From NCBI GenBank assembly GCA_964397915.1, contig CAYNLA010000001.1:7542-71541 (forward strand): a stretch of 64,000 bases of DNA, in the 5' to 3' direction. Positions 30,495 through 57,051 of this stretch are shown here, piece by piece (position 1 is the first letter of the stretch; every line of letters starts with the position of its first letter). A model generated the notes under the pieces. The model did no database searches. It was not told where the DNA came from and worked only from the letters and a program-made list of their open reading frames with translations. This stretch comes from an uncultured Polaribacter sp. Lineage in GTDB: Bacteria; Bacteroidota; Bacteroidia; Flavobacteriales; Schleiferiaceae. The translations under genes were made by a program, and so were the position numbers.

Positions 30495-31970
30495 ATGAAA
30501 TCAGTTATAGTAATCGGCTCTGGATTTGCCGGTTTGAGTTCCGCATCCTTTCTTGCCAAGTCTGGATACGACGTCACCTTGCTTGAAAAAAATGATCAAT
30601 TAGGCGGTCGTGCCCGTGTTTGGGAAACCAAAGGCTACAAATTCGATATGGGACCTAGTTGGTATTGGATGCCAGATGTATTTGAGCGCTATTTCGAAGC
30701 GTTTGGATATGAGGTTCCCGAACTATATGAATTGATAAGGCTAAACCCTTCCTATCGAGTGGTCTTTGGACCAGATGAATTCGAAGATCAAAGCGCGAAT
30801 ATGAAAGAGTTAGAGGCTATGTTTGAACGCCTCGACCCAGGATCTAGCAAACGGCTTCAAAAGTTTTTAAAGGAAGCTGCCTATAAGTACGAAGTTGGAA
30901 TTAAGGACTTAGTACATAAGCCATCGAGATCCTTACTCGAGTTTGCTGATTTTAGAATTCTAAAGGGCTTATTTCAATTGGACTTACTAAAAGACATGCG
31001 TAAGCACGTTGCTGAAGTAAGTACCCACCCGAAGTTGAAAGCTATAATGGAGTTCCCAGTATTATTCTTGGGAGCTTTACCTCAAAATACTCCAGCCCTA
31101 TACAGCTTGATGAATTATGCCGATATGTCTTTAGGTACTTGGTATCCAAAGGGCGGAATGAATAAAATCATTGAAGCAATGGTAAAAGTCGCGAAGGAGC
31201 AAGGGGTTAAATTCCGCACCAATGCTGAAGTAACGGGTTTCAAGTACTCGGGAGATAGAATAGTAGGGGTTACAACTAAGAAAGGTGCCTTTAGCGCAGA
31301 TATAGTTGTAGCTGGCGCCGATTATCATCACGTAGATCAGAACGTATCTGCGGAAGACAAGCGTGAATATTCTGAAAAATATTGGGAGAAGAGAAAAATG
31401 GCTCCTTCATCGTTGCTGTTTTACCTTGGAATAAAGGGGGAAGTGCCGAACGTCTTGCACCACAATTTGTTCTTCGACCATGAATTGGATCAGCATGCAG
31501 CGGAACTCTATACAACGCCACAGTGGCCGACGAAGCCATTGTTCTATGCGAGCGCTCCTTCAAAAACAGATAAATCAATCGCACCTGAAGGCTGTGAGAA
31601 TATGTTTCTTTTGATGCCTACTGCTCCTGGTTTAGGAGGTGATACAGAGGAGGTTAGAGAGAAATATTACAACATTATGATGGATCGACTTGAACAATTT
31701 ACGGGTTCAAGCATTAGAGATAGAGTAGAGGTTAAACGCAGCTTTGCATTCTCCGATTTCAAATCAGAGTACAACAGCTTTAAAGGAAATGCTTACGGGT
31801 TAGCCAATACAATTGACCAAACGGCAATTCTAAAACCGAGACTAAAGAGCAAAAAAGTACGTAACCTTTATTTCGCAGGACAACTTACAACACCGGGACC
31901 TGGTGTACCGCCAACCTTAATTAGTGGGGAAGTTGTAAGCAAAGAAATAGCTAAAGACTTCAAACTATAA
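30495..31970 (+). CDS. crtI: phytoene desaturase
   Basis: FAD motif VIVIGSGFAGLSSASFLAKSGYDVTLLEKNDQLGGRA and C-terminal carotenoid-desaturase motif YFAGQLTTPGPGVP. Confidence 0.93.
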   Translation: MKSVIVIGSGFAGLSSASFLAKSGYDVTLLEKNDQLGGRARVWETKGYKFDMGPSWYWMPDVFERYFEAFGYEVPELYELIRLNPSYRVVFGPDEFEDQSANMKELEAMFERLDPGSSKRLQKFLKEAAYKYEVGIKDLVHKPSRSLLEFADFRILKGLFQLDLLKDMRKHVAEVSTHPKLKAIMEFPVLFLGALPQNTPALYSLMNYADMSLGTWYPKGGMNKIIEAMVKVAKEQGVKFRTNAEVTGFKYSGDRIVGVTTKKGAFSADIVVAGADYHHVDQNVSAEDKREYSEKYWEKRKMAPSSLLFYLGIKGEVPNVLHHNLFFDHELDQHAAELYTTPQWPTKPLFYASAPSKTDKSIAPEGCENMFLLMPTAPGLGGDTEEVREKYYNIMMDRLEQFTGSSIRDRVEVKRSFAFSDFKSEYNSFKGNAYGLANTIDQTAILKPRLKSKKVRNLYFAGQLTTPGPGVPPTLISGEVVSKEIAKDFKL

Positions 31971-32806
31971 TGAAAGCACTATTTGACAGCATTAGCATTC
32001 GGTCGAGCCGAATGGTTACGAAGGCTTATAGTACTTCGTTCTCTCTTGGAATCTTAGGTTTAGATCGTAAATACCACGATCCCATCTATGCCATTTATGG
32101 CTTTGTGCGATTTGCAGATGAGATTGTCGACTCCTTCGAGGGATATGCCCAAAAAGAATTATTGGAAGATTTCTGGAAGGATACCTACAAGGCATTAGAC
32201 CTGAAAATAAGTTTGAATCCTATTCTAAACAGTTTTCAGCAAGTCGTTCATGCCTACAGTATTGATCGTGATTTAATTGAGACTTTTTTAAAGTCGATGG
32301 AAATGGACCTCTACAAGCATGAATATGATGAAGCAGGCTACAAGGCTTACATACTAGGTAGTGCGGAAGTCGTTGGTCTAATGTGCTTAAAGGTTTTTGT
32401 CGATGGCAATGAGGAAAAATATCAATTGCTCAAGAAACCAGCCATGCAATTGGGGTCAGCTTTCCAAAAGATAAATTTCCTTCGTGATTTAAATGCGGAT
32501 TACCACAGCCTCGGACGAACTTATTTTCCGGGTGTAGACTTGAATAACTTTAACGAGGAGGTAAAGGCTGAAATTGAAGCGGATATTGAAATAGACTTTA
32601 ATGCCGGATATGAAGGCATCAAGCAGCTACCCAAAGGCGCTCGTTTCGGTGTTTACATAGCTTACGTTTACTACTACAGTTTATTTAAGAAGATTGAAAA
32701 GACTCATTGTGACCTCATTTTGAATGAGCGGGTGAGAATCAGTAACAAAAGAAAATACGGCTTATTCTTGAGCTCTTATTTTAGACATACCATTAATTGG
32801 ATTTGA
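31970..32806 (+). CDS. crtB: phytoene synthase
   Basis: SQS/PSY motifs YAIYGFVRFADEIVD and FQKINFLRDLNADY. Confidence 0.92.
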   Translation: MKALFDSISIRSSRMVTKAYSTSFSLGILGLDRKYHDPIYAIYGFVRFADEIVDSFEGYAQKELLEDFWKDTYKALDLKISLNPILNSFQQVVHAYSIDRDLIETFLKSMEMDLYKHEYDEAGYKAYILGSAEVVGLMCLKVFVDGNEEKYQLLKKPAMQLGSAFQKINFLRDLNADYHSLGRTYFPGVDLNNFNEEVKAEIEADIEIDFNAGYEGIKQLPKGARFGVYIAYVYYYSLFKKIEKTHCDLILNERVRISNKRKYGLFLSSYFRHTINWI

Positions 32807-32808
32807 CA

Positions 32809-33339
32809 ATGCTTGAACAAGTTATCCTGGTCGATGAGCAAGACAATGCTCTAGGACTGATGGAGAAAATGGAAGCGCATCGCTTGGCGAAACTACACCG
32901 TGCATTCTCTGTTTTCGCCATGAATGACAAAAATGAAATTCTTTTACAACGTCGTGCTTTGCATAAATACCACAGCGGTGGACTTTGGACGAACACATGT
33001 TGTTCGCATCCACGAGACGGTGAGACCGTAGAGCAGGCCGCTAAAAGACGTTTAATGGAGGAGATGGGATTCACTTGTGAAGTGAAACGAATTTTCTCTT
33101 TTATATACAAGGCAGAATTGGATAACGACCTAACAGAGCATGAATTAGATCACGTTCTGATCGCTCGTTACAATGAAGATCCGAATATTAATCCCGATGA
33201 AGTCGATAGTTTTGATTGGAAATCTGTAGAGTGGGTTGCAAATGACATGAAGTCAAACCCTGATAGCTATACAGTTTGGTTTAAAATTATCTATGACCGA
33301 TTCTTAACCTATTGGATGAATGAGAATCACGGTCTCTAG
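32809..33339 (+). CDS. idi: isopentenyl-diphosphate delta-isomerase, type 1 (Nudix)
   Basis: HRAFSVF...LLQRRALHKYHSGGLWTNTCCSHP...AAKRRLMEEMG. ATG at 32809 preferred over the TTG at 32797. Confidence 0.9.
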   Translation: MLEQVILVDEQDNALGLMEKMEAHRLAKLHRAFSVFAMNDKNEILLQRRALHKYHSGGLWTNTCCSHPRDGETVEQAAKRRLMEEMGFTCEVKRIFSFIYKAELDNDLTEHELDHVLIARYNEDPNINPDEVDSFDWKSVEWVANDMKSNPDSYTVWFKIIYDRFLTYWMNENHGL

Positions 33340-33730
33340 AAAAGCGCACTTCAATGCAGCGCACAGACTTCATAACCCAGAATTGAGTTCATCGGAGAAT
33401 CTCGATGTCTTTGGAAAATGCAATAATGAGTATTTCCATGGCCATAATTACGAGTTGGTGGTGAGTGTAACTGGCGAAGTAGATCCTAAAACTGGATACC
33501 TAATCGATATGAAGGTTTTAAGGGATCACATTAAAAACGAGGTAGAAGAGTATCTCGACCACAAGAATTTGAATATTCAGGTAGCTGAGTTCAAAACTTT
33601 GAATCCAACGGCAGAGCACATTGCTTATGTCATCTGGAACCGATTAAGAGTCGTACTTGAAAAGGATTTAGAACTTTCAGTAAGACTTTATGAAACCCCA
33701 AGAAACTTTGTGGATTACAGCGGTTTATAA
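33320..33730 (+). CDS. 6-pyruvoyl-tetrahydropterin synthase family protein (PTPS/QueD superfamily)
   Basis: AHFNAAHRL and GKC34NNE37YFH40GH42NYEL active-site block. Cys is 5 residues and Glu 2 residues before HGH. 136 aa. Confidence 0.85.
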
Positions 33731-33741
33731 AAAATTCAATC

Positions 33742-34413
33742 ATGACTACACACGATAATAAATACACCCCCGAAGATCTAGAGAACCTCGTAGAGGCACA
33801 TCTTGGAACCTCAGTTGACACCCCACTCAGAGGGGATGCCTTTGCGAAGTCTGATGATGAAAAGATTGCTCTTATTGCCGCTAAGTTCCATGATATCATG
33901 GAAATTTTGGGTTTAGATTTAACCGATGATAGCCTTCAAGGCACTCCGCTACGAGTTGCTAAAATGTATGTAAAGGAGGCCTTTTCAGGGCTTAATCCAG
34001 ATAATAAGCCTGAAATGAAGTTATTCGACAATAAGTTTAGGTATACCGAGATGCTCATTGAGAAAGACATCAAAGTCCATTCACACTGCGAGCATCACTT
34101 TGTACCCATTATCGGCAAATGCCACGTAGCGTACATTCCAAATGGAAAAGTGGTTGGCTTGAGTAAGCTAAATAGAATAGTGCGTCATTACGCTAAACGA
34201 CCACAAGTTCAAGAGCGCTTGACAAGACAAATTGCTGAAGCACTAATGGATGGGTTAAATACGCAACATGTCGCTGTCTACCTCGAAGCGGACCATATGT
34301 GTGTCAAAACACGTGGGATAGAGGATGATCATAGTTCTACGGTGACAATGGCCTTCCACGGTAACTTCGAAAAGGAAATAAATAAGCGTGCTTTTCTAGA
34401 GTCCTTTAGATAA
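33742..34413 (+). CDS. folE: GTP cyclohydrolase I
   Basis: [52 protein letters not shown]. Confidence 0.95.
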
Positions 34414-35714
34414 TGCAAGAAGTTTCGGTCTTTTGGTTTCGTCGGGACCTCCGGATAGACGATAATGCAGGTCTGTGGAAAGCCCTGAAATCTGGGCAGC
34501 CAGTCTTACCCATTTTTATCTTTGATCGAAACATCCTAGATAAACTCGAGGAACGTAGTGATGCTAGGGTATCCTTCATTCATCAAAGCATCACGGCCAT
34601 AAACAGCCAATTAAAGGAATACGGCTCAGCTCTTCATGTCTTCTATAGTACACCAATGGAGGTAATGCAAGACCTAAGTCAGAAGTATGAGGTTAAATCT
34701 GTTTTTTTAAATCGAGATTACGAGCCTTACGCGAAAGAACGAGATCAGCAAGTATATGACTTTTGGAAAGCTCGGGGAGTAGATGTTATAGGGGCAAAAG
34801 ATCATGTGATATTCGAAAAAGACGAGGTCGTGAAAGGTGATGGCACCCCTTACTTAGTCTTTAGTCCATATGGCCGCGCTTGGAGGAAAATTCTAAAACC
34901 TTACCACTATAAATCGTACCCTACTGAAAAGTATTTTGGCAAATTCTTCAGATGTGAATTTGGCTCAATACCGTCATTAGAGGATATGGGTTTTGAAAAG
35001 ACGGATATTCCAATTCCATCTTTACAGATTGACTCGAATATTATTAAAACCTACGATTCGACTAGAAATTTCCCAGCGAAGAAAAACGGAACTACCCGTT
35101 TGGGAATACATTTACGCTTCGGCACATTGTCCGTAAGGAAATTATTAGCCCACGGTATTCATTATAATGAGACCTTCGTAAATGAGCTAATCTGGAGAGA
35201 TTTCTATCAAATGGCCTTATACAATTTTCCAAATAGCCGCGAAAAAGCAATAAAACCTAAGTATGATTTTATTCGTTGGGAAAACAATGAAGATCATTTT
35301 AAGGCTTGGTGTAAAGGAAAAACGGGATATCCCATTGTGGACGCGGGAATGCGTGAATTGAACCAAACGGGATACATGCATAATAGAGTTCGCATGATTG
35401 TAGCAAGTTTCTTAACTAAACACCTGTTGATTGACTGGAGATGGGGAGAGGCTTATTTTGCTCAAAAACTTTTGGATTTCGACCTGGCCTCGAATGTAGG
35501 AGGGTGGCAATGGGCAAGCGGCAGTGGACTCGATGCTGCTCCATACTTTAGAGTGTTCAACCCTACTGCCCAAATGGAGAAGTTTGACAAGGACTTGAAA
35601 TACATCAAGAAATGGGTACCGGAGTTAGAAACGCATCTTTACCCACAACCAATAGTTGAACACAAATGGGCGAGAGAACGTTGTCTTGAGCGCTTCAAAG
35701 AGGCGCTACAATAA
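34413..35714 (+). CDS. cryptochrome/photolyase family protein (class I CPD photolyase or Cry-DASH-like)
   Basis: N-terminus FWFRRDLRIDDN. FAD domain TGYPIVDAGMRELNQTGYMHNRVRMIVASFL...WQWASGSGLDAAPYFRVFNP. Confidence 0.9.
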   Translation: MQEVSVFWFRRDLRIDDNAGLWKALKSGQPVLPIFIFDRNILDKLEERSDARVSFIHQSITAINSQLKEYGSALHVFYSTPMEVMQDLSQKYEVKSVFLNRDYEPYAKERDQQVYDFWKARGVDVIGAKDHVIFEKDEVVKGDGTPYLVFSPYGRAWRKILKPYHYKSYPTEKYFGKFFRCEFGSIPSLEDMGFEKTDIPIPSLQIDSNIIKTYDSTRNFPAKKNGTTRLGIHLRFGTLSVRKLLAHGIHYNETFVNELIWRDFYQMALYNFPNSREKAIKPKYDFIRWENNEDHFKAWCKGKTGYPIVDAGMRELNQTGYMHNRVRMIVASFLTKHLLIDWRWGEAYFAQKLLDFDLASNVGGWQWASGSGLDAAPYFRVFNPTAQMEKFDKDLKYIKKWVPELETHLYPQPIVEHKWARERCLERFKEALQ

Positions 35715-35717: not shown

Positions 35718-37142
35718 TTAGACCTTTTCAGTCTCGGGGGAGTAACCAAAGAGTTGTTTCTCTTTAATTACCGTATCTACATACTTTGGTAGACATTCTT
35801 CCCAACCATCTTCGCCACAACGTATTTTACGGAGCACCTCTCTTGAAAAAATATTGGTTATGTCTTGGTCAAACTCTTCAATATCCAATATTCTATTATG
35901 GAAGATGAGATAATCAATAATTGGTCGGAAGCGTGGATGAACCTCTGCATCTTCCTTGCGTGTAATCTTTGAAGTTTGGTCTTCTTGGAAAGGATAAACA
36001 AGAATTTTAAGGTCCTTTGAGAAGATTCTACCGAATGCCTCTAAAATACCGCCTTGTAAACCACGATAGTATTTTTCATTAAAGAGCTCAGATAGATTAT
36101 TAACACCCATAACTAACCCTTGGCGCTTCTTAGAGAATCGTCCGAAGTAGTCAACGAGCTTATAATATTCTTGGTAGTTTGATATGAGCACAGTCTGCCC
36201 AAGGCTACATAGAATTTCAGCACGATCTAGGAAATCTTGTTCATCGATTTCACCCTCGGCCAAGAGGTTATTCAAAGTAATCTCCCAAAGGACTACTGTT
36301 TTGTCTGGATTTACCTTTCTATCGTTCGAAAATACTTCGTATCCGCGCTTAATCATGTCCATATTGACACGGGTAACCGGACGAAAAGATCCTCTCATGG
36401 CTAGAATATGCTTTTTGTAAAGCAATTCTGCTGGCAACAAATTGTTTCCTTCTGGACCGAAAATCACTGCGTCCGTATACCCATTTTTGATCAATTGCAA
36501 TGACATCAAACGATTGTCAACCTGCTCAAAATCAGGTCCTGAGAAGTTGATTAGATCAATCTCAATAGCTGCATGGTCAATATTGTCGTAGAGACTTCGT
36601 AGCAATTCCTTACAATCTGTAAATAGATTGTAAGCACCATAAATAAGATTGGTTCCTAATCTACCTACAGTTTCTTGTTGATGCTTCGCTTCGTTCTCAT
36701 GCAACCTGAAGTGTAAAAAGATATCATTCGTTGCTTTGTCAGGAGCGGTTTGAAAACGAATACCCATCCAGCCATGGCCCTTGAAGGTTTTCGCAAAATT
36801 GATCGTTGCTACAGTATTCGCGTATGCGAAATACGTTTTCTCAGGATGAATTTCCCGGTCTAAACGCTTTTCAATCAAACTGTATTCGTGTTTGAGCATC
36901 TTTCGAACGCGGCTTTCCGTAACATATCTGCGATCTTCTTCGATGCCATAAATGTCATCAGAGAAGGCCTTGTCATAGGCGCTCATTGCCTTTGCGATAG
37001 TTCCCGAAGCTGCTCCAGCTCTAAAGAATTCACGAACTGTTTCCTGCCCAGCACCAATTTCCGCAAACGTACCGTAGATGTCGGGGTTTAGGTTAATTTT
37101 AAGTGCCTTTTGGGCGGTAGTAAGAATGACCCTGTCCTTCAT
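35718..37142 (-). CDS. conserved cytoplasmic protein of unknown function (474 aa)
   Basis: Long clean ORF with no signal peptide or TM segment. N-terminal GTFAEIGAGQETVREFF block. I cannot assign a family. Confidence 0.6.
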   Translation of the reverse strand: MKDRVILTTAQKALKINLNPDIYGTFAEIGAGQETVREFFRAGAASGTIAKAMSAYDKAFSDDIYGIEEDRRYVTESRVRKMLKHEYSLIEKRLDREIHPEKTYFAYANTVATINFAKTFKGHGWMGIRFQTAPDKATNDIFLHFRLHENEAKHQQETVGRLGTNLIYGAYNLFTDCKELLRSLYDNIDHAAIEIDLINFSGPDFEQVDNRLMSLQLIKNGYTDAVIFGPEGNNLLPAELLYKKHILAMRGSFRPVTRVNMDMIKRGYEVFSNDRKVNPDKTVVLWEITLNNLLAEGEIDEQDFLDRAEILCSLGQTVLISNYQEYYKLVDYFGRFSKKRQGLVMGVNNLSELFNEKYYRGLQGGILEAFGRIFSKDLKILVYPFQEDQTSKITRKEDAEVHPRFRPIIDYLIFHNRILDIEEFDQDITNIFSREVLRKIRCGEDGWEECLPKYVDTVIKEKQLFGYSPETEKV

Positions 37143-37229: not shown

Positions 37230-38015
37230 ATGGGCCAAAAAGGTGAATTAATATTTATGGGTACAGGCACATCACAAGGTGTACCAGTCATTGGTTGTGA
37301 TTGCGATGTTTGTATCAGCAAGGACCCCAAGGATAAAAGAAGTCGTTCATCCGTTCATTTCTCGTTTAGTGATGCCAAAATTCAAGTAGATACAGGGCCT
37401 GATTTTAGAAGTCAAATGCTGCGGGAAAATATTTCAGGGGTAGATGCGGTTTTCTTCACTCATGAACATCAAGATCACATTGCTGGACTTGATGATGTAC
37501 GCCCTATGATTTTTCGAACAAAGAAGGCAATGCCCATTTATGGACAGGAACGTGTCATTAATAGAATCAAACGGGCATTTCATTATGCCTTTGAGGAGAA
37601 CCCGTATCCAGGTGCACCTAAATTTGATATCAACTACATCAATGACTCCAATCTTGTTGTAATCAACGGGATAGAAGTTTTACCCATTTCTGTGATGCAT
37701 GGCCAACTTCCCATATTGGGATATAGGATAGGGGATACCGCCTACATTACAGATGTAAAAACGGTACCTAACACCTCATTACAATTGCTAAAAGGACTTA
37801 AAACACTCGTCTTTGATGCCCTACATGATTATCCCCATCAAAGCCATTGTACATTGGATGAGGCCATTGAATGGGCTGAGATAATTGGGGCAGAGTCAAC
37901 GTATTTCATCCATTTAAGCCATCACATGGGTACACATGAGGCGACGACGAGGAGATTGCCTGAAAACATGCACATTGCTTACGATGGACTACGGTTGCCC
38001 GTTTCTACCCTTTAA
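37230..38015 (+). CDS. MBL-fold metallo-hydrolase (PhnP-like)
   Basis: GTGTSQGVP...CDCDVC Zn-ribbon-like insert and HEHQDH metal motif. Confidence 0.8.
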   Translation: MGQKGELIFMGTGTSQGVPVIGCDCDVCISKDPKDKRSRSSVHFSFSDAKIQVDTGPDFRSQMLRENISGVDAVFFTHEHQDHIAGLDDVRPMIFRTKKAMPIYGQERVINRIKRAFHYAFEENPYPGAPKFDINYINDSNLVVINGIEVLPISVMHGQLPILGYRIGDTAYITDVKTVPNTSLQLLKGLKTLVFDALHDYPHQSHCTLDEAIEWAEIIGAESTYFIHLSHHMGTHEATTRRLPENMHIAYDGLRLPVSTL

Positions 38016-39274
38016 AGCGAAAGTAGATTTCCCTTTACAAAGACCGCTTTAACATTATGCGAAGTATGGGTTCCGCGGAATGGATTATTATGAGCTTTGC
38101 TTGCAAAACCTGTCCAATCTTGTCCATCAGTTCCAATAATTGTGAACTCCGCTTCTCCACCTTCAACGATACCCAAACTAGGCAACCCCAGTAGCTTACG
38201 AGGATTGGTCGAACATAATTCTTGGATGCGTTCGTTGGGGATAAGGTCTAGATCTAACAAATGACATAATGCGCCTTCGAATCCTGCCATTCCAAATTCG
38301 GCATTATCAAATTCACATTGCTTTTGTTCGATGTCTTTTGGCAAATGATCCACAGATAAACAATCGACTGTTCCGTCAAGGGTCGCGTTTAAGAGTGCTT
38401 CTTGATCCTTTTTGCTTCTAAGCGGAGGGCTGACTTTGAGCGAGGTATCGTAGTGTATTAAATCCTCTTCTGTGAATAAGAGATGATGGATGTTTACACT
38501 ACAGGTTACGTTCAAGCCTAATTCTTTTGCTTCACGAATAGCAGCAATTCCCTTCGCTGTACTCACACTTGCGATGTGTAAGGATCCTTCGGTATACTCT
38601 AGAATATTTAAATCTCGCTGAATACGGGCGTACTCGGATAATGCAGGTATGCCTTTCAGGCCAACATATGTACTCGTCACGCCCTCATTCATTTTACCTC
38701 CCGCGACAAGTTCATGATCTTCTGGATGAACCATAATTCGACCGAAAGGCTTCGTGTAGAGGAGGGCAAGTTTCAACAAATTGGCGTTTGACATGCCATG
38801 TTTGTAATCAACGAATAACTCACTGCCGTGCTCGAACATGTCGAACATTTCACTAAGCTCTTCTCCTTTACGTCCCTTAGTAGCGGTGCCGATTGGAATT
38901 AAATGAACTGGACTTTGATCGCTTTTATTGGTAATGAATTCTATTCCGGTCTTATTATCGGCAAACGGGGTTCCATTGCTTACTACACCTACGGCTGTAT
39001 AGCCACCGGCTGCAGCGGCCGCTGCACCAGATCGCAGGGTCTCAGACTCTTCGTTTCCGGGCTCGCCTAAATCACTGTGCAATTCAGCAAAACCTGGATA
39101 AAGATCTGCCCCAGCAGCATCCCAAGTATTCCCATCAAAAGAATCAATAGTACCGATTTGTGCAATAGAATCTCCTTCAATCAATACATCAACAGTTTCA
39201 TTGTGATAAGGACTGTTGGTGTCAACGATGTGCGCGTTCTTAATCAGGAGCTGCATCTCAGAAAATTTTGACAA
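38012..39274 (-). CDS. dihydroorotase-like amidohydrolase with degenerate metal ligands (PyrC-prime-like)
   Basis: Amidohydrolase fold by overall pattern. The N-terminal HxH is ELHSDLGEPG, and the later HV/HIST-type His is SLHIASVST. VDHLPK is retained. An alternative start is the ATG at 39256 (MQLLIKNAH). Confidence 0.7.
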   Translation of the reverse strand: MSKFSEMQLLIKNAHIVDTNSPYHNETVDVLIEGDSIAQIGTIDSFDGNTWDAAGADLYPGFAELHSDLGEPGNEESETLRSGAAAAAAGGYTAVGVVSNGTPFADNKTGIEFITNKSDQSPVHLIPIGTATKGRKGEELSEMFDMFEHGSELFVDYKHGMSNANLLKLALLYTKPFGRIMVHPEDHELVAGGKMNEGVTSTYVGLKGIPALSEYARIQRDLNILEYTEGSLHIASVSTAKGIAAIREAKELGLNVTCSVNIHHLLFTEEDLIHYDTSLKVSPPLRSKKDQEALLNATLDGTVDCLSVDHLPKDIEQKQCEFDNAEFGMAGFEGALCHLLDLDLIPNERIQELCSTNPRKLLGLPSLGIVEGGEAEFTIIGTDGQDWTGFASKAHNNPFRGTHTSHNVKAVFVKGNLLSL

Positions 39275-40721
39275 AAATAACGGCTATTAGCACGAAAAGC
39301 AATGCAAAGAGCAAGGCAATTTTTGAATTGTCCCAATCAACCTGCGCCAATGCTAGGTTTTCGCTTCCAATTTCTGAAGATTCACCGAATAAAATCTGAT
39401 CACCAAAGCGCTCAAGATTTACGGCGTAGTTATCGTTTCCTAGCGGCCTATTAGTACCGATGTTAACGGAACTGCTTTTGAACGACCACTGCTTTAGCGC
39501 TGTATAGTAGGGGTGCGTTACATCATCTATTTCAAATCCTTGCATGTAAATTCTTTGAGAAGATTGAGAAATAAAGCCCGATAGTATGCTCTCCCCATCT
39601 TGTAGTAATGCTTCGCTCGTTGGATCGATGAAGTTAGACTTTTCGGGGGATGGCCAATTATTTCTAGGTGAAGCACCTATAAAATACTTTGAGTAGAAGG
39701 GGTGATTTAGATTCGCCCTTGGCTGCTCTAGAATTTTCGCGTTTTTCAATTCTACAGGAAAAACTAAAAGCGTTTTTACAGAGGATAATATGGGTTCTGG
39801 GATAAAATCAAAACCGAACAACACCGCAGTTTCAAACTCGGTTTCAAGTGGCTCGGAAAAATCATCATACTCAATTATAGTGTCTACTTTGAATACCTTG
39901 GCGATTTGCGTTGCGGCTTGTTTTTGATTATCCAATAAATAGTAAAGTGCTCTTCTTGACTTCGATCGCTTCCTTATTTTGATTGTATTATCGGCTTCCA
40001 ACAAGTCAGAACTATGAACGACAGAATACTCCAGATCCGCTTTTAGAAGGTCCAATTGGATATCAATTTTTGACACGGAGTCCCATTCGAGGAATAATTC
40101 ATCACCTTCAAACATTTTCCACAACCCCTTATCATCACCGGTATTAAGCGCAACCTTATCGTCACTCAATTCTACCGAGCACAATGCGTTGAAGAGAACG
40201 TCACGCTTTGGAAGCAAATAAGACGCGTAATTTGAATCAATGGGCGCAAAGCCATAGGAGAGCAGTGTGCCCATGACTTCAGGTAGTGGTGCCAGTGATG
40301 AAGGCCATTGCTCTAATACGGTCAATAGAGCTGCCTTGTCAATACTATTCAGTTCTGTACCACCACGCAACAGGACATTGTACTTCCCTGATGGAAGCAA
40401 GGGCAATAAATCAACAAGCCAATCTTGTCGTTGTTCCCAACCCGCAGGGTGATTGTCAATAATTAACGTTTTAGAAGGTTTGTCTAGGGACGGCTTTGCT
40501 AATGCTAGCACCACAGCAAGAACAGCTAAAATGCGCAGAAGCAATACGATTAAATCTTTTAAACGATGCCGTTTCCGCTGTTTAGCTTGAAACGTTTTGA
40601 GCCACATTAATGATGGAATCGCTATAGGCTTTGAAGGTCTTCGACCTATCATATGGATAACTAGCGGGACCAAGGCAAATAGTCCCGCCCATAGCCATTG
40701 TGGTTGTTCAAATCCTATCAT
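39258..40721 (-). CDS. BatA N-terminal double-TM domain protein
   Basis: N-terminus FEQPQWLWAGLFALVPLVIHMIGRR, typical of the aerotolerance BatA-N/TIGR02226-type domain. C-terminal TM anchor. Confidence 0.65.
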   Translation of the reverse strand: MIGFEQPQWLWAGLFALVPLVIHMIGRRPSKPIAIPSLMWLKTFQAKQRKRHRLKDLIVLLLRILAVLAVVLALAKPSLDKPSKTLIIDNHPAGWEQRQDWLVDLLPLLPSGKYNVLLRGGTELNSIDKAALLTVLEQWPSSLAPLPEVMGTLLSYGFAPIDSNYASYLLPKRDVLFNALCSVELSDDKVALNTGDDKGLWKMFEGDELFLEWDSVSKIDIQLDLLKADLEYSVVHSSDLLEADNTIKIRKRSKSRRALYYLLDNQKQAATQIAKVFKVDTIIEYDDFSEPLETEFETAVLFGFDFIPEPILSSVKTLLVFPVELKNAKILEQPRANLNHPFYSKYFIGASPRNNWPSPEKSNFIDPTSEALLQDGESILSGFISQSSQRIYMQGFEIDDVTHPYYTALKQWSFKSSSVNIGTNRPLGNDNYAVNLERFGDQILFGESSEIGSENLALAQVDWDNSKIALLFALLFVLIAVIFVKIF

Positions 40722-41149
40722 TTTAATCGTGCATTCACCAGCGTAAACGGTAAGTTCTCAGGAGTTGTATTTAGCTTGATTTGCCCAATTACGGTGACTA
40801 CATCATCCGTCAATAATTTTTGTGGTGATTCAAATAAGATTTCCATTACGCTTTCCGGTCCAGCTGCACCGCAGAAAAAGCAAGATGAAAATGGAAATGC
40901 ACTTAATGCATAGACTTGGTCTACAGGATCAAGAACAATGGCATATCCAGTTACTAATACATAAGAACCTGACCATGATTTGCGCTGTTCCTCAGTCCAT
41001 TGAGGAACTTGGACCCAGGTCGCAGTAGGTTCATCATAAACTTCTTCAAATGAAATTGATTCCAACTCACTCCATAATAGGCGTTCTTGCGCCGCCACAG
41101 CAGTGCCCATCATGATAAAAGTGAGTATTAAAACAGATCGCTGTATCAT
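40718..41149 (-). CDS. secreted small protein, DUF3299-like, paralog A
   Basis: Signal peptide, then VTGYAIVLDP...YALSAFPFSSCFFCGAAGPESVMEILF. It is a tandem paralog of the upstream ORF. Confidence 0.6.
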   Translation of the reverse strand: MIQRSVLILTFIMMGTAVAAQERLLWSELESISFEEVYDEPTATWVQVPQWTEEQRKSWSGSYVLVTGYAIVLDPVDQVYALSAFPFSSCFFCGAAGPESVMEILFESPQKLLTDDVVTVIGQIKLNTTPENLPFTLVNARLK

Positions 41150-41565
41150 CCGTGAAATTCTGCTTGCTGAATAATGAAGAATAAACGGTAGGGATCCTTT
41201 TCATTGAAGACTATCGTTCCTTTAATTACAACAAATTGGTCCGTAATTAAATGATCAGGTTGATTCTTAAAAACCAATTCAACCACCGTGTTTGGAGCCG
41301 CGTTACCGCAAAAAAAACAGCTTGAAAATGCATATCGACTGAGTGCGTATTGCTTTGTCTGAACATCTACAGGCACCAAATAACCTTGAAGTACAACCTC
41401 TTGATTCTTATAGCCATCAAGCCATGTTGGAAATTGAGGTTGGTATAGTCCATCTGGTGTTGTAGTGTAGGGAACTGCGAGTAAATCCCAGGACAACACT
41501 TGTTGTGCTTTCATGGAAGTGATGCTACTCAGACATACCAACGAAATAAATAAGAGATTTTTCAT
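41146..41565 (-). CDS. secreted small protein, DUF3299-like, paralog B
   Basis: Signal peptide MKNLLFISLVCLSSITSMKAQ, then LQGYLVPVDV...YALSRYAFSSCFFCGNAAPNTVVELVF. Confidence 0.6.
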   Translation of the reverse strand: MKNLLFISLVCLSSITSMKAQQVLSWDLLAVPYTTTPDGLYQPQFPTWLDGYKNQEVVLQGYLVPVDVQTKQYALSRYAFSSCFFCGNAAPNTVVELVFKNQPDHLITDQFVVIKGTIVFNEKDPYRLFFIIQQAEFHG

Positions 41566-41569
41566 AGTA

Positions 41570-42640
41570 TTATTTTCGCAATCGCATGATTACTAGCGAC
41601 GTAAGCCATAGCGTTAAACAAACTCCGTAATCAATAATCTGTATTGAACCTGGAAAATAATTCTCAATAACTTGTAAGGAGAGGAGGAGGCCAAAAAATC
41701 CAAAAAGACTATAAAGGCCGAAAGCTGCGAGAATCTTTTTCCCATTCGTCCATTTTAACGTTGCCAAATATGCTTGGGTGGAACGTTCGTTTCCTGCTAT
41801 GTTCCACATCATAGCTAAGTACAGTAATGCCATTACAATACCTAGAATAGTCCCGAATTTCCGTGCTTTCAAAAGTGTTGGTTCCCATTGCTTTTGAATC
41901 TGTCCAAACACAAAAACAGGAAAAGCGCCTTGCTCATCAGCTCTCTTTGCAATAGTTGCCGGGAGCATCAACATGGCAGACTTTGATTTTAATCGCAGCA
42001 AAAGTGAGGTATAGGTCCGCTCAGATTGATGATGTAAATCGAGATAAGCTTCATTCGTCGTGAAGAAACAATCTTGGTCCGATTGTCGGTTCGCTTTAAT
42101 GATGCCTACAACTTTAAGAGGATGAGCGTGTCCTTCGCCTCGCGCATCGCTGCCGTGAGATGATTGCAATTCATTTCCAATCTCAATGCCTAAGGATGTT
42201 GCCAAATTTTCGGCCAAGACTAGATCGTGTGGTCCATTGGGATAATGGCCTTCTAACAATGTAATTCCAAACCATTCGTAATAGCCGTCTTCAACGCCAA
42301 CTAAAGGGTGTCCATCGATATTATCGCCCATGGACAATGCACAAGAGTTCTGTACCAGTGGATGTTTGGTCCAAAAATCATAGGTTGAGCCTGAAATATT
42401 ACCCGTTGGATTCTCTAATCGAAACAGGGCGTTTGCAATAATTTGAATGGGACTTCCTTTATAACCAATGATTACATCGACCAATTCTGCGCTTTCCTGC
42501 CATGTGGAATACAAATATTGTTCTCCTGCTTTTGAAGACTTTATCAGTGAGCCTGTCGTAAATGCCAATACAAAAACGACACCCAATAACATCCAGCGAC
42601 GCTTTAATTGGATCAACCATATGTAAACGACCTTCATCAT
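41570..42640 (-). CDS. ABC transporter permease, MacB/FtsX-like, with large extracytoplasmic domain
   Basis: One N-terminal TM segment, a ~220-aa loop containing HGSDARGEGHAHP, then a C-terminal TM bundle; 356 aa. Confidence 0.7.
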   Translation of the reverse strand: MMKVVYIWLIQLKRRWMLLGVVFVLAFTTGSLIKSSKAGEQYLYSTWQESAELVDVIIGYKGSPIQIIANALFRLENPTGNISGSTYDFWTKHPLVQNSCALSMGDNIDGHPLVGVEDGYYEWFGITLLEGHYPNGPHDLVLAENLATSLGIEIGNELQSSHGSDARGEGHAHPLKVVGIIKANRQSDQDCFFTTNEAYLDLHHQSERTYTSLLLRLKSKSAMLMLPATIAKRADEQGAFPVFVFGQIQKQWEPTLLKARKFGTILGIVMALLYLAMMWNIAGNERSTQAYLATLKWTNGKKILAAFGLYSLFGFFGLLLSLQVIENYFPGSIQIIDYGVCLTLWLTSLVIMRLRK

Positions 42641-43167
42641 AACTCAAATCGTTTAGCCGCAGAGAATGCTTTCTTAAGACGTTCGTCGTGGGTTACGACA
42701 ATAACCGTCCCTAATGGATTGTCTATACTCCAATTTTCAATAAGCTCGATGGCTTTATCAGCCCAATCATCATCAAGCGCACTGGTCGGCTCATCAAGTA
42801 ATAATAGTTCCGAATCCACGTGCAATGCTGCTAGTAGCGAAAAACGTTGCAATTGACCAATGCTTAGTTCATGAGGAAAACGACGGACCAATTGGTCCAA
42901 TCCTAAACTTGTAAAATCCACACCCTGAGCTCCAGCAACCTTCAACTGTTCGTGCATCCTTAAATAGGGAATCCAAGTAGGGGTTTGAGACATAATGGAA
43001 GAGGAGCCTTCTACATTCGGAATAGGACCATCCGCCTTTAGTATTCCGTGTAGAACCCTCAAAAGAGTAGTCTTGCCGGTACCTGAAGCGCCGGTAACCA
43101 AAATGATTCCTGATACTAATTCCAGTTTAGGATAGTTGATGGTATGTGTACCGAAGTTTACAGTCAT
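42637..43167 (-). CDS. ABC transporter ATP-binding protein (short, 176 aa)
   Basis: Walker A GASGTGKTT, Q-loop MSQTP, variant signature LSIGQLQR, Walker B LLLLDEPTSALD, H-loop VVTHD. Confidence 0.85.
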   Translation of the reverse strand: MTVNFGTHTINYPKLELVSGIILVTGASGTGKTTLLRVLHGILKADGPIPNVEGSSSIMSQTPTWIPYLRMHEQLKVAGAQGVDFTSLGLDQLVRRFPHELSIGQLQRFSLLAALHVDSELLLLDEPTSALDDDWADKAIELIENWSIDNPLGTVIVVTHDERLKKAFSAAKRFEL

Positions 43168-43619
43168 CCGAATAAGTTATAGCAATAAACCAATGGTGCC
43201 GCGATACAATACGCCAATTTCATCACCATTCCAGTAAACAATCCAATCACTGCAAAAAATGCCGCTTTTAAGCTTTTCAATACATCACGGGTTTGTAAAA
43301 GTTCACCCAACATGGCACCCACAAAGGCTGCCAGAATGAAAAACGGAGTGATAATTCCAGCAATCAAACCGATGAGCGCTCCACGGGAAGCCGCCTTCGA
43401 ACCACCGCCAAGCTTTGTAAATATGGAAGGCATAAAATAATCGGCCACGAAAACAATAAGTCCAAGGCTCGCCCAAACAGCTAAATTCATGCCCTCTATG
43501 GGGCCTTGGTTTGTGAGTATTAAGACCAATGCACCTGCCGTGAGTAATGGACCGGGAAGCACTGGCAATACGGCTCCAGCTAGACCTGCGATGAACAATA
43601 AAACAATTGCAACTTCCAT
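43164..43619 (-). CDS. DUF456 family membrane protein
   Basis: Four hydrophobic helices. N-terminus LAGAVLPVLPGPLL is typical of DUF456. Confidence 0.65.
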   Translation of the reverse strand: MEVAIVLLFIAGLAGAVLPVLPGPLLTAGALVLILTNQGPIEGMNLAVWASLGLIVFVADYFMPSIFTKLGGGSKAASRGALIGLIAGIITPFFILAAFVGAMLGELLQTRDVLKSLKAAFFAVIGLFTGMVMKLAYCIAAPLVYCYNLFG

Positions 43620-43678
43620 GAGGTTAAATATACAATGGTAGCCGCTGCCATACCGTAATATTCCAATAGTTTTACCCT

Positions 43679-51901: not shown

Positions 51902-54900
51902 TTAGGCCGATTCCGCAGATTTACGTCCACGCTTCATCGTAGTACTGGTTTTACTGTAGTTATCCTTTTCGCGAGCCATGGTATCCTCATATCGTGGATC
52001 TGGAACCATGGCGACTTTGTAGAGCGCCGAAGCTTCGATACTGAAGAAGCCAAATTCTTCCACAACGCGACCCTGTACACGATAAATACCTTTGCCACGA
52101 AACGGAAATTGTGCAGCGATGTTTGGGAAATGCACGCTGTCCAAGAATTCACCCTCTTGATCAACGAACGTGGCAAAATTCATTCGATCGCCTTTTATTG
52201 TTTTTGTGTCTTTCACCGTCACTAAATACCCGTACGAAATAACGAAGTGCCCCAGTTTATCAGGTAATTCCCTGGCCATAGTACCGTTCTCCAAAGGTTC
52301 ATCGGCCAATTCAAACGGGTCACACAGTGGAAATCCTAGGAGCTCAATTTGATCGAAGGCTTCTTCGAGACTACTTTGTTGAAGTATTGGAATCTTATAA
52401 TCGTGCGGTTGTTGATTGCCCTTAAATAAACTAGGTGGTGCTGCTATAACTTCTTTCGTATTACGGCCTCGAAGCATGTGATGGGCTTCCCAAAGTAAGG
52501 TTTGTTTTGACTTTCCAGTAAAGCGTAGGGCACCGATACGTATTAGTAATGAAATCTGCTCTATCCCAACAGGAACGCGGTCTATGAAATCTGCTAAATC
52601 CATAAAGGGTCCTCCCTCCTCGCGTTCACGCCCTATGTATACACCTATTTTTTCATCTAAACTTCGCAACAATACAAAGCCCAGGTAAATAGTGTTCCCT
52701 TGAATCACTGTAGGATAATCACCATACTGTACACAGGGTGCTTCGATCTGACCTCCATTGCGGCGAGCTTCGTGAACATAGAACTCTGTTCTGTAGAACC
52801 CGCCGAAATTATTTATCACCGCAACCATGTATTCCAAGGGATAATGTGCCTTCAAATAGAGGCTTTGATAGCTTTCTACGGCATACGATGCACTATGACC
52901 TTTAGCAAAAGCATAGCCTGCAAAACTTTCTATTTGACGCCAAATCTCACGACTCAGTTCTTCACTATATCCTCGCTCCCTACAGTTTTTAAAATATTGA
53001 TTTTCAACATTTTGAAACTCTCTTCTTGAACGAAATTTCCCTGACATTCCTCGACGCAATACATCGGCTTCTCCCAGCGAAAGCCCTGCGAAATAATGGG
53101 CGACTTTGATGACATCTTCTTGGTAGACCATCACTCCAAAGGTGTCCGGCATAATCTCAAGCATCACAGGGTGTGCATCCTTTCTACGCTCTGGATCAGT
53201 AAACCGCAGTATATACTCACGCATCATCCCACTATTACTTACTCCTGGGCGAATAATGGAACTGGCCGCGACCAGTCCTAAATAGGTATCGACCTTGAGT
53301 TTTTTAAGTAGCATTCTCATCGCCGGCGATTCCACATAGAAACATCCCATGGCCAAGCCATTTCGCAGTAAGTTTTTAATGGCCTCATCTTCTTTAAACC
53401 GCCGTAAGTCACGTATATCTATAAATGGACGATCCGGCTTGTTCTTTGCCACGATGGCTAGGGTGTCCTGAATTTTAGAAAGACCTCGCTGGCTCAGGAT
53501 ATCAAATTTATGCAGGCCAATATCTTCAGCGATGATCATATCAAACTGCACAGTTGGAAATCCTTTGGGAGGCATAAAAGTCGCGCTGTGGTAGTGCAAG
53601 CTTTGCTGTGCGATTAGTATTCCTCCTGCATGAATACTAAGGTGGCTTGGAAACCCTTGTATGTAAGTGCTATAACGAAGTACGAGATGGGATAATTGAT
53701 CGAGCGAGCCCGATGAGAAATTCCCTTTACTTAGTTTGTCTATCTCGTGCTTGGGTAAACCGAACACCTTCCCTAGTTCTCGAACCACCGATTTGTACTG
53801 AAATGTGTTGTAAGTAGCTAACAGTGAGGTATGTGGGAACCTTTTGAAGATGTACTGGGTGATATCCTCGCGATCGCGCCATGAAAAATCAAGGTCAAAA
53901 TCTGGTGGTGAGGTTCGATGCAGGTTGATAAATCGCTCGAAGTACAGGTCCAGTGCGATTGGATCAACATCCGTGATTTTAAGAAGGTAGGCGACAATGC
54001 TGTTGGCCCCGCTCCCCCGCCCCACGTAGAAATAACCACGTTTTTGAGCGTAATTCACAATATCCCAATTGATTAAGAAGTAGGACACAAAGTTCTTTTG
54101 GGCGATGAGGTCCAGTTCTTTCTCAATGCGTTCCTTGACCTTGAAGTCTGACTGTGGATAGCGGTACGGTAAGCCGTCGTAGCAAAGCTTTCTTAGAAGT
54201 TTCAGGTCCTTTTCGCGTGAACCTGAATAGGTCTGAAGATTTAGCGCGGCGTCCTCCGGTAAGGTCATTTTACAGTCCTGAAGGATTTGAGCTGCATTTC
54301 TAAGGAGTTCAGGTGCGGATGCATAGGCCTCACGAAGGGCATGATCTTCTAAATACAGGTCGTCGATGCTGCCTTGGGCTTCTTTTGATAGTTTGCTGAG
54401 CAGGGTATTTTCATCAATGGCTCGGAGCAAGCGATGCGCGTTGTGGTCCCGTTTTCCTCTGAAAGAAGCAGTTGGGAACGCGACGAGTTTGTGCTTCGCA
54501 TCTTTCCACTTTCGAAACGGTAAGGACGGAACTTCGGAGGGTGTAATGCCTATACATTCATTGTTCGCAAGATCCTTTAAGTCAATATCTGAGGAGGTTG
54601 GATAAATGATCCAAGTATTGGCAAGGGTCTTTCTATCAGGGCGCTGTGGAAATTTTACGCTGTGATGTAAATGCCAACTTAGATGGTCGTTGATTTCCCG
54701 CATCCCTTCCCAATTTCTCGCCAGCATTACATAGCATTGGCGAGTACCATTACGAAAATCAACACCTACCACAGGGCGTTTATTGGGATGATTACGCATG
54801 AGGTGCAAGACCGTCATGCACGCCGAAGTGTTGTTAATGTCTGTCAATGCCATCACAGGCCAGGGCTGGTCTTCAAAGAATTTTATCCATTCTTTAGGCG

Positions 54901-54949
54901 ACACGATTCCATAGCGCAAGCTGTAATAACTGTGCGTATTCAATAGCAT
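51902..54949 (-). CDS. dnaE2: error-prone DNA polymerase III alpha-subunit paralog (DnaE2-type)
   Basis: PHP N-terminus LNTHSYYSLRYG, Pol III alpha core (GRGSGANSIVAYLL, FDLDF) and OB domain; 1015 aa. It lies in an operon with a Y-family polymerase and an S24 repressor. Confidence 0.85.
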   Translation of the reverse strand: MLLNTHSYYSLRYGIVSPKEWIKFFEDQPWPVMALTDINNTSACMTVLHLMRNHPNKRPVVGVDFRNGTRQCYVMLARNWEGMREINDHLSWHLHHSVKFPQRPDRKTLANTWIIYPTSSDIDLKDLANNECIGITPSEVPSLPFRKWKDAKHKLVAFPTASFRGKRDHNAHRLLRAIDENTLLSKLSKEAQGSIDDLYLEDHALREAYASAPELLRNAAQILQDCKMTLPEDAALNLQTYSGSREKDLKLLRKLCYDGLPYRYPQSDFKVKERIEKELDLIAQKNFVSYFLINWDIVNYAQKRGYFYVGRGSGANSIVAYLLKITDVDPIALDLYFERFINLHRTSPPDFDLDFSWRDREDITQYIFKRFPHTSLLATYNTFQYKSVVRELGKVFGLPKHEIDKLSKGNFSSGSLDQLSHLVLRYSTYIQGFPSHLSIHAGGILIAQQSLHYHSATFMPPKGFPTVQFDMIIAEDIGLHKFDILSQRGLSKIQDTLAIVAKNKPDRPFIDIRDLRRFKEDEAIKNLLRNGLAMGCFYVESPAMRMLLKKLKVDTYLGLVAASSIIRPGVSNSGMMREYILRFTDPERRKDAHPVMLEIMPDTFGVMVYQEDVIKVAHYFAGLSLGEADVLRRGMSGKFRSRREFQNVENQYFKNCRERGYSEELSREIWRQIESFAGYAFAKGHSASYAVESYQSLYLKAHYPLEYMVAVINNFGGFYRTEFYVHEARRNGGQIEAPCVQYGDYPTVIQGNTIYLGFVLLRSLDEKIGVYIGREREEGGPFMDLADFIDRVPVGIEQISLLIRIGALRFTGKSKQTLLWEAHHMLRGRNTKEVIAAPPSLFKGNQQPHDYKIPILQQSSLEEAFDQIELLGFPLCDPFELADEPLENGTMARELPDKLGHFVISYGYLVTVKDTKTIKGDRMNFATFVDQEGEFLDSVHFPNIAAQFPFRGKGIYRVQGRVVEEFGFFSIEASALYKVAMVPDPRYEDTMAREKDNYSKTSTTMKRGRKSAESA

Positions 54950-54964
54950 TTCCCCTACCCGATT

Positions 54965-55774: not shown

Positions 55775-55803
55775 GGTACTCTTCTCTCTAAGTTAAATTC
55801 TTT

Positions 55804-57015: not shown

Positions 57016-57051
57016 GAGTGGGTATTTATGAGTTTTAGGGGTGTTCACAGC

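Follow-up and report, generated by a model that had tools for sequence, protein, structure and literature searches.

A putative mosaic operon of Schleiferiaceae built around a reduced relative of the ZrgBCE/PA4064-PA4066 system

The closest described relatives of the gene cluster analyzed here are ZrgABCDE of Vibrio and PA4063-PA4066 of Pseudomonas aeruginosa, both encoded in Zur-regulated operons (PMC9817125, PMC11481552). Zn deficiency raises the expression of the Zrg genes in Vibrio 76- to 206-fold (PMC9817125), and ZrgA is required for growth at low zinc (PMC9820375). PA4064/65 has been modelled as a MacB-type exporter of pyochelin-cobalt and not as a zinc importer (PMC11481552). The mechanism of the Zrg/PA4064-66 systems is thus disputed, with Vibrio genetics pointing to zinc acquisition and the work on P. 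aeruginosa to pyochelin-cobalt export. The ZrgBCE/PA4064-PA4066 family represents a split type VII (MacB-fold) ATP-binding cassette (ABC) machine acting on the periplasmic side. Here we describe a cluster of seven genes on the minus strand (38012-43619) of a 64,000-nt stretch of DNA from an uncultured Polaribacter sp. of the Schleiferiaceae (assembly GCA_964397915.1, contig CAYNLA010000001.1, positions 7,542 to 71,541), referred to as the window.

The seven genes probably constitute a mosaic operon, composed of an optional DUF456 gene, a reduced module of the ZrgBCE type, a hydrolase-like gene that has been lost in this lineage, and a pair encoding a BatA_N protein and a pseudo-dihydroorotase. 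These modules would have been assembled within a streamlined genome. Since no gap within the cluster exceeds 4 nt and an upstream element is conserved, the genes are almost certainly transcribed as one unit from a promoter just upstream of DUF456. The core of the cluster, consisting of the ATPase, the permease and two OB-fold proteins, is by sequence comparison a reduced and divergent member of the ZrgBCE/PA4064-PA4066 family. A preliminary description made from the sequence alone had pointed to a likeness to the Zur-regulated PA4063-PA4066 locus. This likeness holds, as the locus could be retrieved and the permease aligns to PA4065 over its full length. The BatA_N and pseudo-dihydroorotase genes had correctly been named as foreign to that locus. 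The type of system is already known from Zrg/PA4064-66, and what is new is a minimal core that lacks ZrgA and has duplicated CxxC proteins. The features of the locus, all on the minus strand, are:

43625-43635, minus: TTGTATATTTA, a conserved element resembling a promoter, which precedes the first ATG of the cluster by 5-6 nt and is kept in Schleiferiaceae loci
43164-43619, minus: first gene, DUF456 small polytopic membrane protein of 151 aa (PF04306)
42637-43167, minus: minimal ABC nucleotide-binding subunit of 176 aa, ZrgC/PA4064-like (ABC_tran; BLASTP to PA4064)
41570-42640, minus: type VII (MacB-fold) ABC permease of 356 aa, ZrgB/PA4065-like (hhalign to PA4065)
41146-41565, minus: secreted OB-fold protein 1 of 139 aa, CxxC-type relative of DUF3299 (fold match to 4HSP; BLASTP)
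40718-41149, minus: secreted OB-fold protein 2 of 143 aa, paralogue of protein 1 (BLASTP)
39258-40721, minus: BatA_N-domain membrane protein of 487 aa (PF07584, TIGR02226)
38012-39256, minus: class-I dihydroorotase paralogue with degenerate active site, 414 aa from the ATG at 39256 (TIGR00857, alignment)

The window locus resembles the Vibrio and P. aeruginosa operons in combining a separate nucleotide-binding domain (NBD) with a permease of four transmembrane (TM) helices that also has a large domain in the periplasm, with a small secreted OB-fold protein of DUF3299 type coming next. A histidine triad of the permease is common to the window and PA4065, and close relatives of the window genes are found beside Fur-type repressors and zinc-starvation genes. 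Unlike these operons, the window encodes two DUF3299-like paralogues instead of one, with CxxC where PA4066 shows C-x-H, and both the ATPase (176 aa) and the permease (356 aa) are trimmed. ZrgD is missing, as is a Fur/Zur gene or a recognisable operator at the locus, and the core appears to be fused transcriptionally to DUF456, BatA_N and the pseudo-dihydroorotase.

Gene order, junctions and the upstream element

Reading the open reading frames (ORFs) of the window reproduced the seven minus-strand ORFs between 43619 and 38012 that had been described before, together with ATGA overlaps at 43164-43167, 42637-42640, 41146-41149 and 40718-40721 and a gap of 4 nt at 41566-41569, the largest inside the cluster. 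For the junction at 39256-39274 two options had been offered, a 17-nt overlap or a 1-nt gap, which correspond to starts at a TTG (39274) and an ATG (39256), respectively. The ATG at 39256 is the conserved start and the TTG option falls, because the dihydroorotase-like orthologues all begin with MQLL or MKLL at this point, a few nt past the BatA stop codon. Tight junctions are common outside the cluster as well: 16 of 30 same-strand neighbour pairs in the rest of the window have gaps of 4 nt or less, and the coding density of the window is about 91%. A run of six consecutive tight junctions has a chance of roughly 0.53^6, i.e. about 0.02, and is therefore mildly unusual. As tight packing is common genome-wide, the junctions argue for co-transcription, but taken alone they are a weak argument for a shared function.

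The spacer between DUF456 and a divergently oriented DnaQ/GIY-YIG gene measures 59 nt and contains TTGTATATTTA. This element is kept in all aligned Schleiferiaceae loci, including those from which DUF456 is gone, where it stands directly before the ATPase gene. It resembles the Bacteroidota -7 box (TAnnTTTG). Scans for Sigma-70 promoters and terminators gave counts at chance level, and an Rfam search of the window returned no match.

Homologues of the cluster come from metagenome-assembled genomes (MAGs) named Schleiferiaceae, Cryomorphaceae or Flavobacteriales. In about 34 species-level Schleiferiaceae genomes the whole region of 15 kb is found in one order: gyrA, ClpC, DnaQ/GIY-YIG (divergent), DUF456, ATPase, permease, small protein 1, small protein 2, an extra gene in some loci, BatA_N, dihydroorotase-like gene, MBL (convergent), a gene for a 474-aa protein, and photolyase. 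Conservation of the gene order in relatives, which had been proposed as a check on the cluster, was thus observed throughout the family. However, the housekeeping flanks (ClpC, DnaQ-GIY-YIG, MBL, photolyase) are equally syntenic, so that the conserved order says little about function. The locus sits in a housekeeping region and may lie near the origin, which could explain the rigid synteny. The window also holds dnaA (9107-10546, minus strand), relA/spoT, ligA, a recN-like gene, prfC and gyrA.

The extra gene encodes 326-333 aa and is located between small protein 2 and BatA_N in about two thirds of the Schleiferiaceae loci (8906-9907 in locus L001; also in L016-L021, L023-L025, L027-L038, L048 and L051). 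Its product is weakly alpha/beta hydrolase-like (Hydrolase_4, E 1e-4, below the Pfam threshold). The clade of the window and a few others do not have it, and in L006 a gap of about 500 bp is left at the position that it occupies in relatives. Since the clade of the window lacks a gene that most relatives carry at this place, the ATGA overlap at 40718-40721 is probably secondary and left by the loss of the hydrolase-like gene. The DUF456 gene is absent from three Schleiferiaceae loci (L012, L023 and L025); it is an optional passenger that is dispensable within the family.

The ABC core and its small secreted partners

A Pfam/NCBIfam scan of the cluster confirmed most of the domain names in the preliminary description, with matches to DUF456 (PF04306, E 1.1e-24, 87.7 bits at a gathering threshold of 29.4), ABC_tran (E 2e-14), BatA_N (PF07584, E 1.4e-16; TIGR02226, E 2e-18) and the dihydroorotase family TIGR00857. 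The permease and both small proteins gave no significant Pfam match. The ATPase was found to be as short as described, 176 aa with an LSIGQ signature, and keeps Walker A, Q-loop, Walker B, D-loop and H-loop. Compared to the 212-aa ATPases of the sister loci introduced below, it is shorter by about 16 aa behind Walker A and by about 9 aa within the helical subdomain. BLASTP relates it to PA4064 (E 7e-11), and its gene is separate from and directly upstream of the permease gene, the two overlapping by the ATGA at 42637-42640.

The permease had been labelled MacB/FtsX. Its own sequence does not carry this label in Pfam, but close homologues contain MacB_PCD (PF12704), and the nearest ones outside the Schleiferiaceae (25-33% identity) add FtsX (PF02687). 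Comparison of the permease family profile to PA4065 of P. aeruginosa by hhalign gave 99.8% with E 1.5e-29 over 364 columns, covering the full length, and the window permease itself is related to PA4065 by tblastn (E 9e-13). The same profile scored 57% (E 1e-4) against E. coli LolC and 4% against E. coli MacB. On the basis of these profile scores we assign the permease to the clade of the type VII ABC superfamily that contains ZrgB/PA4065, outside MacB and Lol proper. The overall topology is the one known from MacB, LolCDE and FtsEX, and homologues of the window permease share the MacB_PCD and FtsX domains with them. The profile relation is remote, and the cluster lacks a MacA-like adaptor, a further paralogue of the permease and an NBD fused to it. 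A Lol-like identity was ruled out by the LolC profile score and by the presence of a single permease, as LolCDE has the paralogous LolC and LolE; TIGR02212 matched with E 0.0088 at a cut-off of 362 bits. A MacB-like identity was ruled out by the profile score of 4%, the separate NBD gene and the lack of an adaptor gene in the cluster.

An alignment of permeases reaching from the window to Phaeobacter and PA4065 revealed D55, N81, D106, H162, G163, H171 and H203 as invariant periplasmic residues. The His-rich patch HGSDARGEGHAHP, to which attention had been drawn before, corresponds to residues 162-174 and thus includes H162 and H171, two of the three histidines that do not vary in the whole family. 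In sister permeases long His/Asp-rich insertions follow directly after H203.

The two small proteins are paralogues (31% identity, BLASTP E 1e-19), and both carry a signal peptide and an invariant SCFFCG motif. Within the family, small protein 1 is the most strongly conserved product of the cluster (66-81% identity), with C83 and C86 invariant. A homology search with this protein returned close Schleiferiaceae orthologues only. As sequence-only searches of the PDB with small protein 1 and with a profile of 59 sequences did not find PA4066, the link to DUF3299 required a fold search, a bridging sequence and hhalign. An AlphaFold2 model of small protein 1 (pLDDT 93.4) has PA4066 (4HSP, DUF3299) as its top fold match in the PDB (E 6.2e-4, TM 0.53), followed by generic OB folds. 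The bridging sequence is the DUF3299 neighbour of a sister permease, to which small protein 1 is related by BLASTP (E 2e-9) with the Cys motif aligned, and which finds PA4066 in a PDB-wide search (E 1e-3). Small proteins 1 and 2 also match a protein of Chondrinema named DUF3299 in RefSeq (PGAP), with BLASTP E values of 5e-23 and 1e-25, respectively. Finally, the small-protein family profile aligns to PA4066 in hhalign (79%, E 1.6e-5). The earlier naming of two DUF3299-like proteins is therefore supported by fold as well as by sequence, although both stay below the Pfam threshold.

The small-protein family comprises 889 clusters at 50% identity (representative search, E <=1e-3). C-F-F-C is present in both window proteins, in Chondrinema and in one sister-locus protein, C-P-F-C in two more distant ones, and PA4066 and the Phaeobacter DUF3299 protein show C-x-H at this position. 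The top match to the family profile (E 4e-71) was P0202, a protein of 5620 aa with 45 separate matching stretches, the best of them at profile positions 83-111; either a giant protein built of repeats or an artefact of low complexity may lie behind it.

We then considered the genomic context of related modules. A metagenome scan yielded at least 571 sister loci, 80 of which were kept and 64 of which had callable neighbours. A protein like small protein 1 is encoded in 36 of these 64, nearly always directly downstream of the permease. Recurrent Pfam-confirmed neighbours are Fur-family proteins, CobW/COG0523 GTPases, MerC, SlyD-like FKBPs with His-rich tails and TonB-dependent receptors, and at least one such metal marker is present in 13 of the 24 sister loci of 9 kb or more. 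One of the nearest loci outside the Schleiferiaceae reads Redoxin, ABC, permease, DUF3299, and another near relative ZnuB, ZnuA, x, ABC, permease, Redoxin, DUF3299, HupE/UreJ. The Redoxin (thioredoxin-fold) genes of two among the closest sister loci lie at 5855-6355 of L003 and 4105-4545 of L008. Redoxin is rare among the wider set of 64; its presence hints that the Cys motif of the DUF3299-like proteins must stay reduced or is redox-active.

Annotated anchor loci were recovered by tblastn with one sister permease. The P. aeruginosa locus consists of DUF2796, ABC ATPase, permease, DUF3299 and oprG (PA4063-PA4066-oprG), and the one of Phaeobacter of Fur, DUF2796, ABC, permease and DUF3299. A P. 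aeruginosa record (L138, CP109682.1) is labelled a plasmid of 425 kb and carries the chromosomal PA4063-PA4066-oprG region; it may represent a piece of the chromosome or an element derived from it. In Chondrinema (Bacteroidota) the locus contains a TonB-dependent receptor, a GTP-binding protein, MerC, an ABC ATPase, folE, a transcriptional repressor, the permease and DUF3299. Judging from size and position we take the GTP-binding protein to be of the COG0523 type, and from its place in the cluster the repressor to be of the Fur type. Other relatives of the small proteins adjoin a MacB_PCD/FtsX permease. At 3630-7582 of L052 a protein of 193 aa resembling small protein 1 follows an ABC-2/DUF3526-type transporter, with an extracytoplasmic function sigma factor (FecI), FecR and a TonB-type receptor adjacent. 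The CxxC OB-fold protein is thus not confined to ZrgB-like partners.

The metal-handling role suggested in the preliminary description gains support from these data, as the closest relatives sit in metal-homeostasis clusters. A periplasmic metal role of the core is a hypothesis supported by the His triad, the His-rich loops of the sister proteins, the Cys motif of the partner proteins and the Zur-type neighbourhoods of relatives, and zinc would most likely be the ligand. In the mechanism that we propose, ATP hydrolysis by a dimer of the minimal NBD would be transmitted through the four-helix permease to its periplasmic domain. This domain, with the triad H162, H171 and H203, would accept or pass on a divalent metal (most likely zinc), which may be exchanged with the DUF3299-like proteins and their CxxC motifs. 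The duplication of these proteins could make up for the missing ZrgA/PA4063. Transfer may go in either direction, acquisition or expulsion, as the literature on the characterised relatives is divided.

The BatA_N/dihydroorotase-like pair, DUF456 and other features of the window

In the BatA_N protein a double-TM hairpin at the N-terminus and a TM anchor at the C-terminus flank a central region that evolves fast, and its orthologues within the family are 29-52% identical. Profile searches with 20 orthologues did not relate the central region of about 380 aa to any Pfam or PDB family. An AlphaFold2 model based on a five-sequence alignment was unusable (pLDDT 48.6), and the gene context of a distant BatA_N match (P0201) was uninformative. 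With BatA of the Bacteroides Bat operon the protein shares the N-terminal double-transmembrane BatA_N domain, but it lacks the vWA domain and has no MoxR, DUF58 or BatB-E neighbours.

The dihydroorotase-like protein scores barely above the cut-off of TIGR00857 (280.7 vs 279.05 bits) and has its nearest relatives among the class I enzymes (S. aureus 3GRI, E 3e-62; class III 2GWN only E 4e-15). The housekeeping dihydroorotase of Bacteroidota belongs to class III, like 2GWN of P. gingivalis (PMC11672702). Alignment to the dihydroorotases of S. aureus, T. thermophilus and B. anthracis confirmed that the active site is degenerate, as had been described: the HxH motif is changed to H60-S-D62, the substrate-binding Arg to G64 and the strand-6 His to S230, whereas H177 and D303 are kept. 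The residues at these sites are invariant in the four orthologues aligned. A catalytically active class I dihydroorotase was ruled out by these three changes. The protein resembles Pseudomonas PyrC' and the Zur-regulated PyrC2 in its class-I-like dihydroorotase fold, its substituted metal ligands and its presence in addition to the housekeeping type of the phylum. It differs from PyrC2, which has a Gln substitution, by the H-S-D motif and the Arg to Gly and His to Ser changes, and unlike examples in Omnitrophota and Hymenobacter it is not located beside pyrB; its partner is a BatA_N protein. A scan with the dihydroorotase-like alignment, using lineage-specific patterns such as GFAELHSD, returned only Schleiferiaceae and a few pyrB-linked enzymes of other phyla, the patterns being too narrow to assess a linkage across Flavobacteriales. 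In Hymenobacter the enzyme encoded beside pyrB belongs to class I and appears to be active, and in a MAG titled 'bacterium' it is class-I-like and shows HxQ instead of HxH.

A second instance of the pair was found by tblastn against a plasmid database in Rufibacter tibetensis (Cytophagales), where a BatA_N ORF of 653 aa (PF07584, 30.6 bits at a cut-off of 25.9) has a 17-nt overlap with a dihydroorotase-like gene that is even more degenerate, the pair standing immediately behind 23S-5S rRNA. The alignment of the window and Rufibacter BatA_N proteins is confined to the N-terminal domains. No ABC module is present near this pair in the 9.8 kb examined. Because Rufibacter carries BatA_N and a degenerate dihydroorotase in the absence of the ABC module, the comparison indicates that the two form a gene pair in its own right. 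The Rufibacter record (NZ_CP012645.1, 'plasmid 2', 12.5 kb; L143 3056-5017) contains 23S and 5S rRNA and genes of chromosomal type. The annotated start of its BatA_N gene at 3347 cuts off the N-terminal BatA_N domain, and the full ORF begins at 3056.

DUF456 of the window belongs to the same Pfam family as YqgC of B. subtilis, the only DUF456 protein studied, which has been linked genetically to Mn homeostasis (bioRxiv 10.1101/2024.02.14.580342). There the partner gene is a different one, sodA. Within Schleiferiaceae the DUF456 gene is dispensable.

Further features lie on either side of the cluster. At 35718-37142 (minus strand) the window encodes the 474-aa protein of the syntenic region, which has no Pfam family and is 83-95% identical across Schleiferiaceae, level with ClpC. 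The plus-strand stretch 30495-35714 starts with a phytoene desaturase gene (30495-31970, Pfam), and by synteny with an annotated relative the ORFs after it encode phytoene synthase, a NUDIX protein, PTPS, GTP cyclohydrolase I and photolyase. All of these genes abut or overlap, so that this light-related cluster beside the locus is a further case of genome-wide tight packing. At 51902-57048 (minus strand) a DnaE-type polymerase (1015 aa, no PHP domain detected), an ORF of 269 aa and a Y-family polymerase (414 aa, IMS domains) follow in a row, which looks like a mutagenesis cassette of the imuA-imuB-dnaE2 type. The G+C content of the 54-60 kb stretch is 0.46-0.47 as compared to about 0.41, and may reflect horizontal acquisition.

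Alternative readings and significance

Several observations weigh against a mosaic operon with a Zrg-type metal module. A conserved palindrome or operator was not found in the aligned Schleiferiaceae spacers upstream of the cluster, which in some species measure only 30 nt, nor a Fur-family/Zur gene within the syntenic 15 kb. DUF2796 (ZrgA/PA4063) is present neither in the window cluster nor in any Schleiferiaceae locus, nor in sister loci of the Bacteroidota type. Small protein 1 reaches only 12.2 bits (E 0.2) against Pfam DUF3299 (PF11736) with its gathering threshold of 22 bits, small protein 2 gives no match, and 7 of 59 sampled relatives attain E 0.01. The H162/H171/H203 triad is defined from the alignment and not from closeness in a three-dimensional model. 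In addition, knockouts of zrgE had no phenotype (PMC9820375), and evident binding of zinc was reported to be absent for PA4066 (PMC11481552). The independent BatA_N/dihydroorotase pair is known from one outgroup genome, and more than 30 species keep the seven (or eight) genes together even though BatA_N has fallen to about 30% identity.

The last observation would be explained if all seven, ancestrally eight, genes formed one integrated envelope system for metal homeostasis. The Zrg-like module would then move the metal, DUF456 and BatA_N would serve as membrane accessories, and the dihydroorotase paralogue would by analogy to PyrC2 be an enzyme with a remodelled metal site or a metal handler, produced along with the transporter. 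The tight junctions, kept along with the order despite the 29-52% identity of BatA_N, and the single conserved promoter element are consistent with such a system. Of the six metal-ligand positions the paralogue also keeps four (H60, H177, D303 and one of D150/Y151), the other two being invariantly Asp and Ser, although the loss of the substrate-binding Arg argues against a working dihydroorotase. Precedents for metal links of the partners are PyrC2 paralogues with an altered Zn ligand in Zur regulons (PMC11672702) and the connection of YqgC to Mn homeostasis (bioRxiv 10.1101/2024.02.14.580342). Yet the housekeeping flanks are just as syntenic, homologues of DUF456, BatA_N and the dihydroorotase-like gene accompany the module in none of the 64 sister loci, DUF456 and the hydrolase-like gene were repeatedly lost, and the Rufibacter pair does without the module. 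Since none of the extra partners travels with the module elsewhere, we regard full integration as unlikely. For the same reasons the proposal of one distinctive seven-gene functional system was not upheld: besides the absence of the extra genes from sister loci, DUF456 is lost in three loci, the extra gene intervenes in most, and the Rufibacter pair stands alone. A more specific version takes the ancestrally eight-gene cluster for a minimal operon of 'metal economy' that streamlined marine Flavobacteriales would express constitutively. Here a ZrgA-less machine of the ZrgBCE type, a heterodimer of the CxxC OB-fold proteins forming a Cys4 site, and the permease His triad would capture trace zinc. 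The dihydroorotase paralogue and BatA_N would provide a cytoplasmic and membrane arm for metal delivery, sensing or zinc-sparing pyrimidine synthesis. We consider this version rather improbable.

The ABC module might also be unrelated to free metal ions and export or extract another cargo, with the OB-fold proteins as cargo adaptors; candidates would be a metallophore complex, as proposed for pyochelin-cobalt in P. aeruginosa, or else lipids, lipoproteins or peptides of the kind handled by LolCDE and MacB. Type VII ABC systems are mechanotransmitters acting on periplasmic substrates, and PA4064/65 has been argued to be an exporter (PMC11481552), a view with which the lack of evident zinc binding by PA4066 agrees. 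The small-protein relative next to ABC-2/DUF3526, FecI/FecR and a TonB receptor stands in a siderophore-type context, and the Redoxin genes at some sister loci would fit a redox function of CxxC in place of a metal site. Nevertheless, the invariance of the three histidines extends across phyla, and His/Asp-rich loops occur in sister permeases. The neighbours are zinc-type markers (COG0523, ZnuA/B, Fur-type repressor, SlyD-like) and not biosynthetic clusters, a gene for a MacA-like adaptor or an outer-membrane partner is missing nearby, and the profile is far from LolC and MacB. We therefore judge a different cargo to be quite unlikely. Very improbable, finally, is mere genome compaction, i.e. 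unrelated genes with internal promoters and neither co-transcription nor any link even within the ABC part. In the rest of the window, over half of the neighbours on one strand are packed just as tightly, and consensus promoter and terminator scans gave nothing above chance in either direction, but unrelated phyla also have the ATPase, permease and DUF3299 genes as one unit and the intergenic space is 4 nt or less throughout the cluster.

The mosaic operon with its reduced Zrg-type core is accordingly the reading we favour. To our knowledge no role has been assigned to the DUF3299 component of these systems. The periplasmic His triad, invariant from Bacteroidota to Pseudomonas, offers a testable point in the dispute about their mechanism. 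The analysis also uncovers a large CxxC-type branch of DUF3299-like proteins, mostly missed by the Pfam model, and flags the BatA_N/pseudo-dihydroorotase pair in two classes of Bacteroidota. The Schleiferiaceae version is naturally minimal, with an NBD of 176 aa, a permease of 356 aa, no ZrgA and no evident regulator, and could suit structural and biochemical study. Schleiferiaceae are abundant marine Flavobacteriales, and their abundance makes trace-metal handling in this family ecologically relevant.

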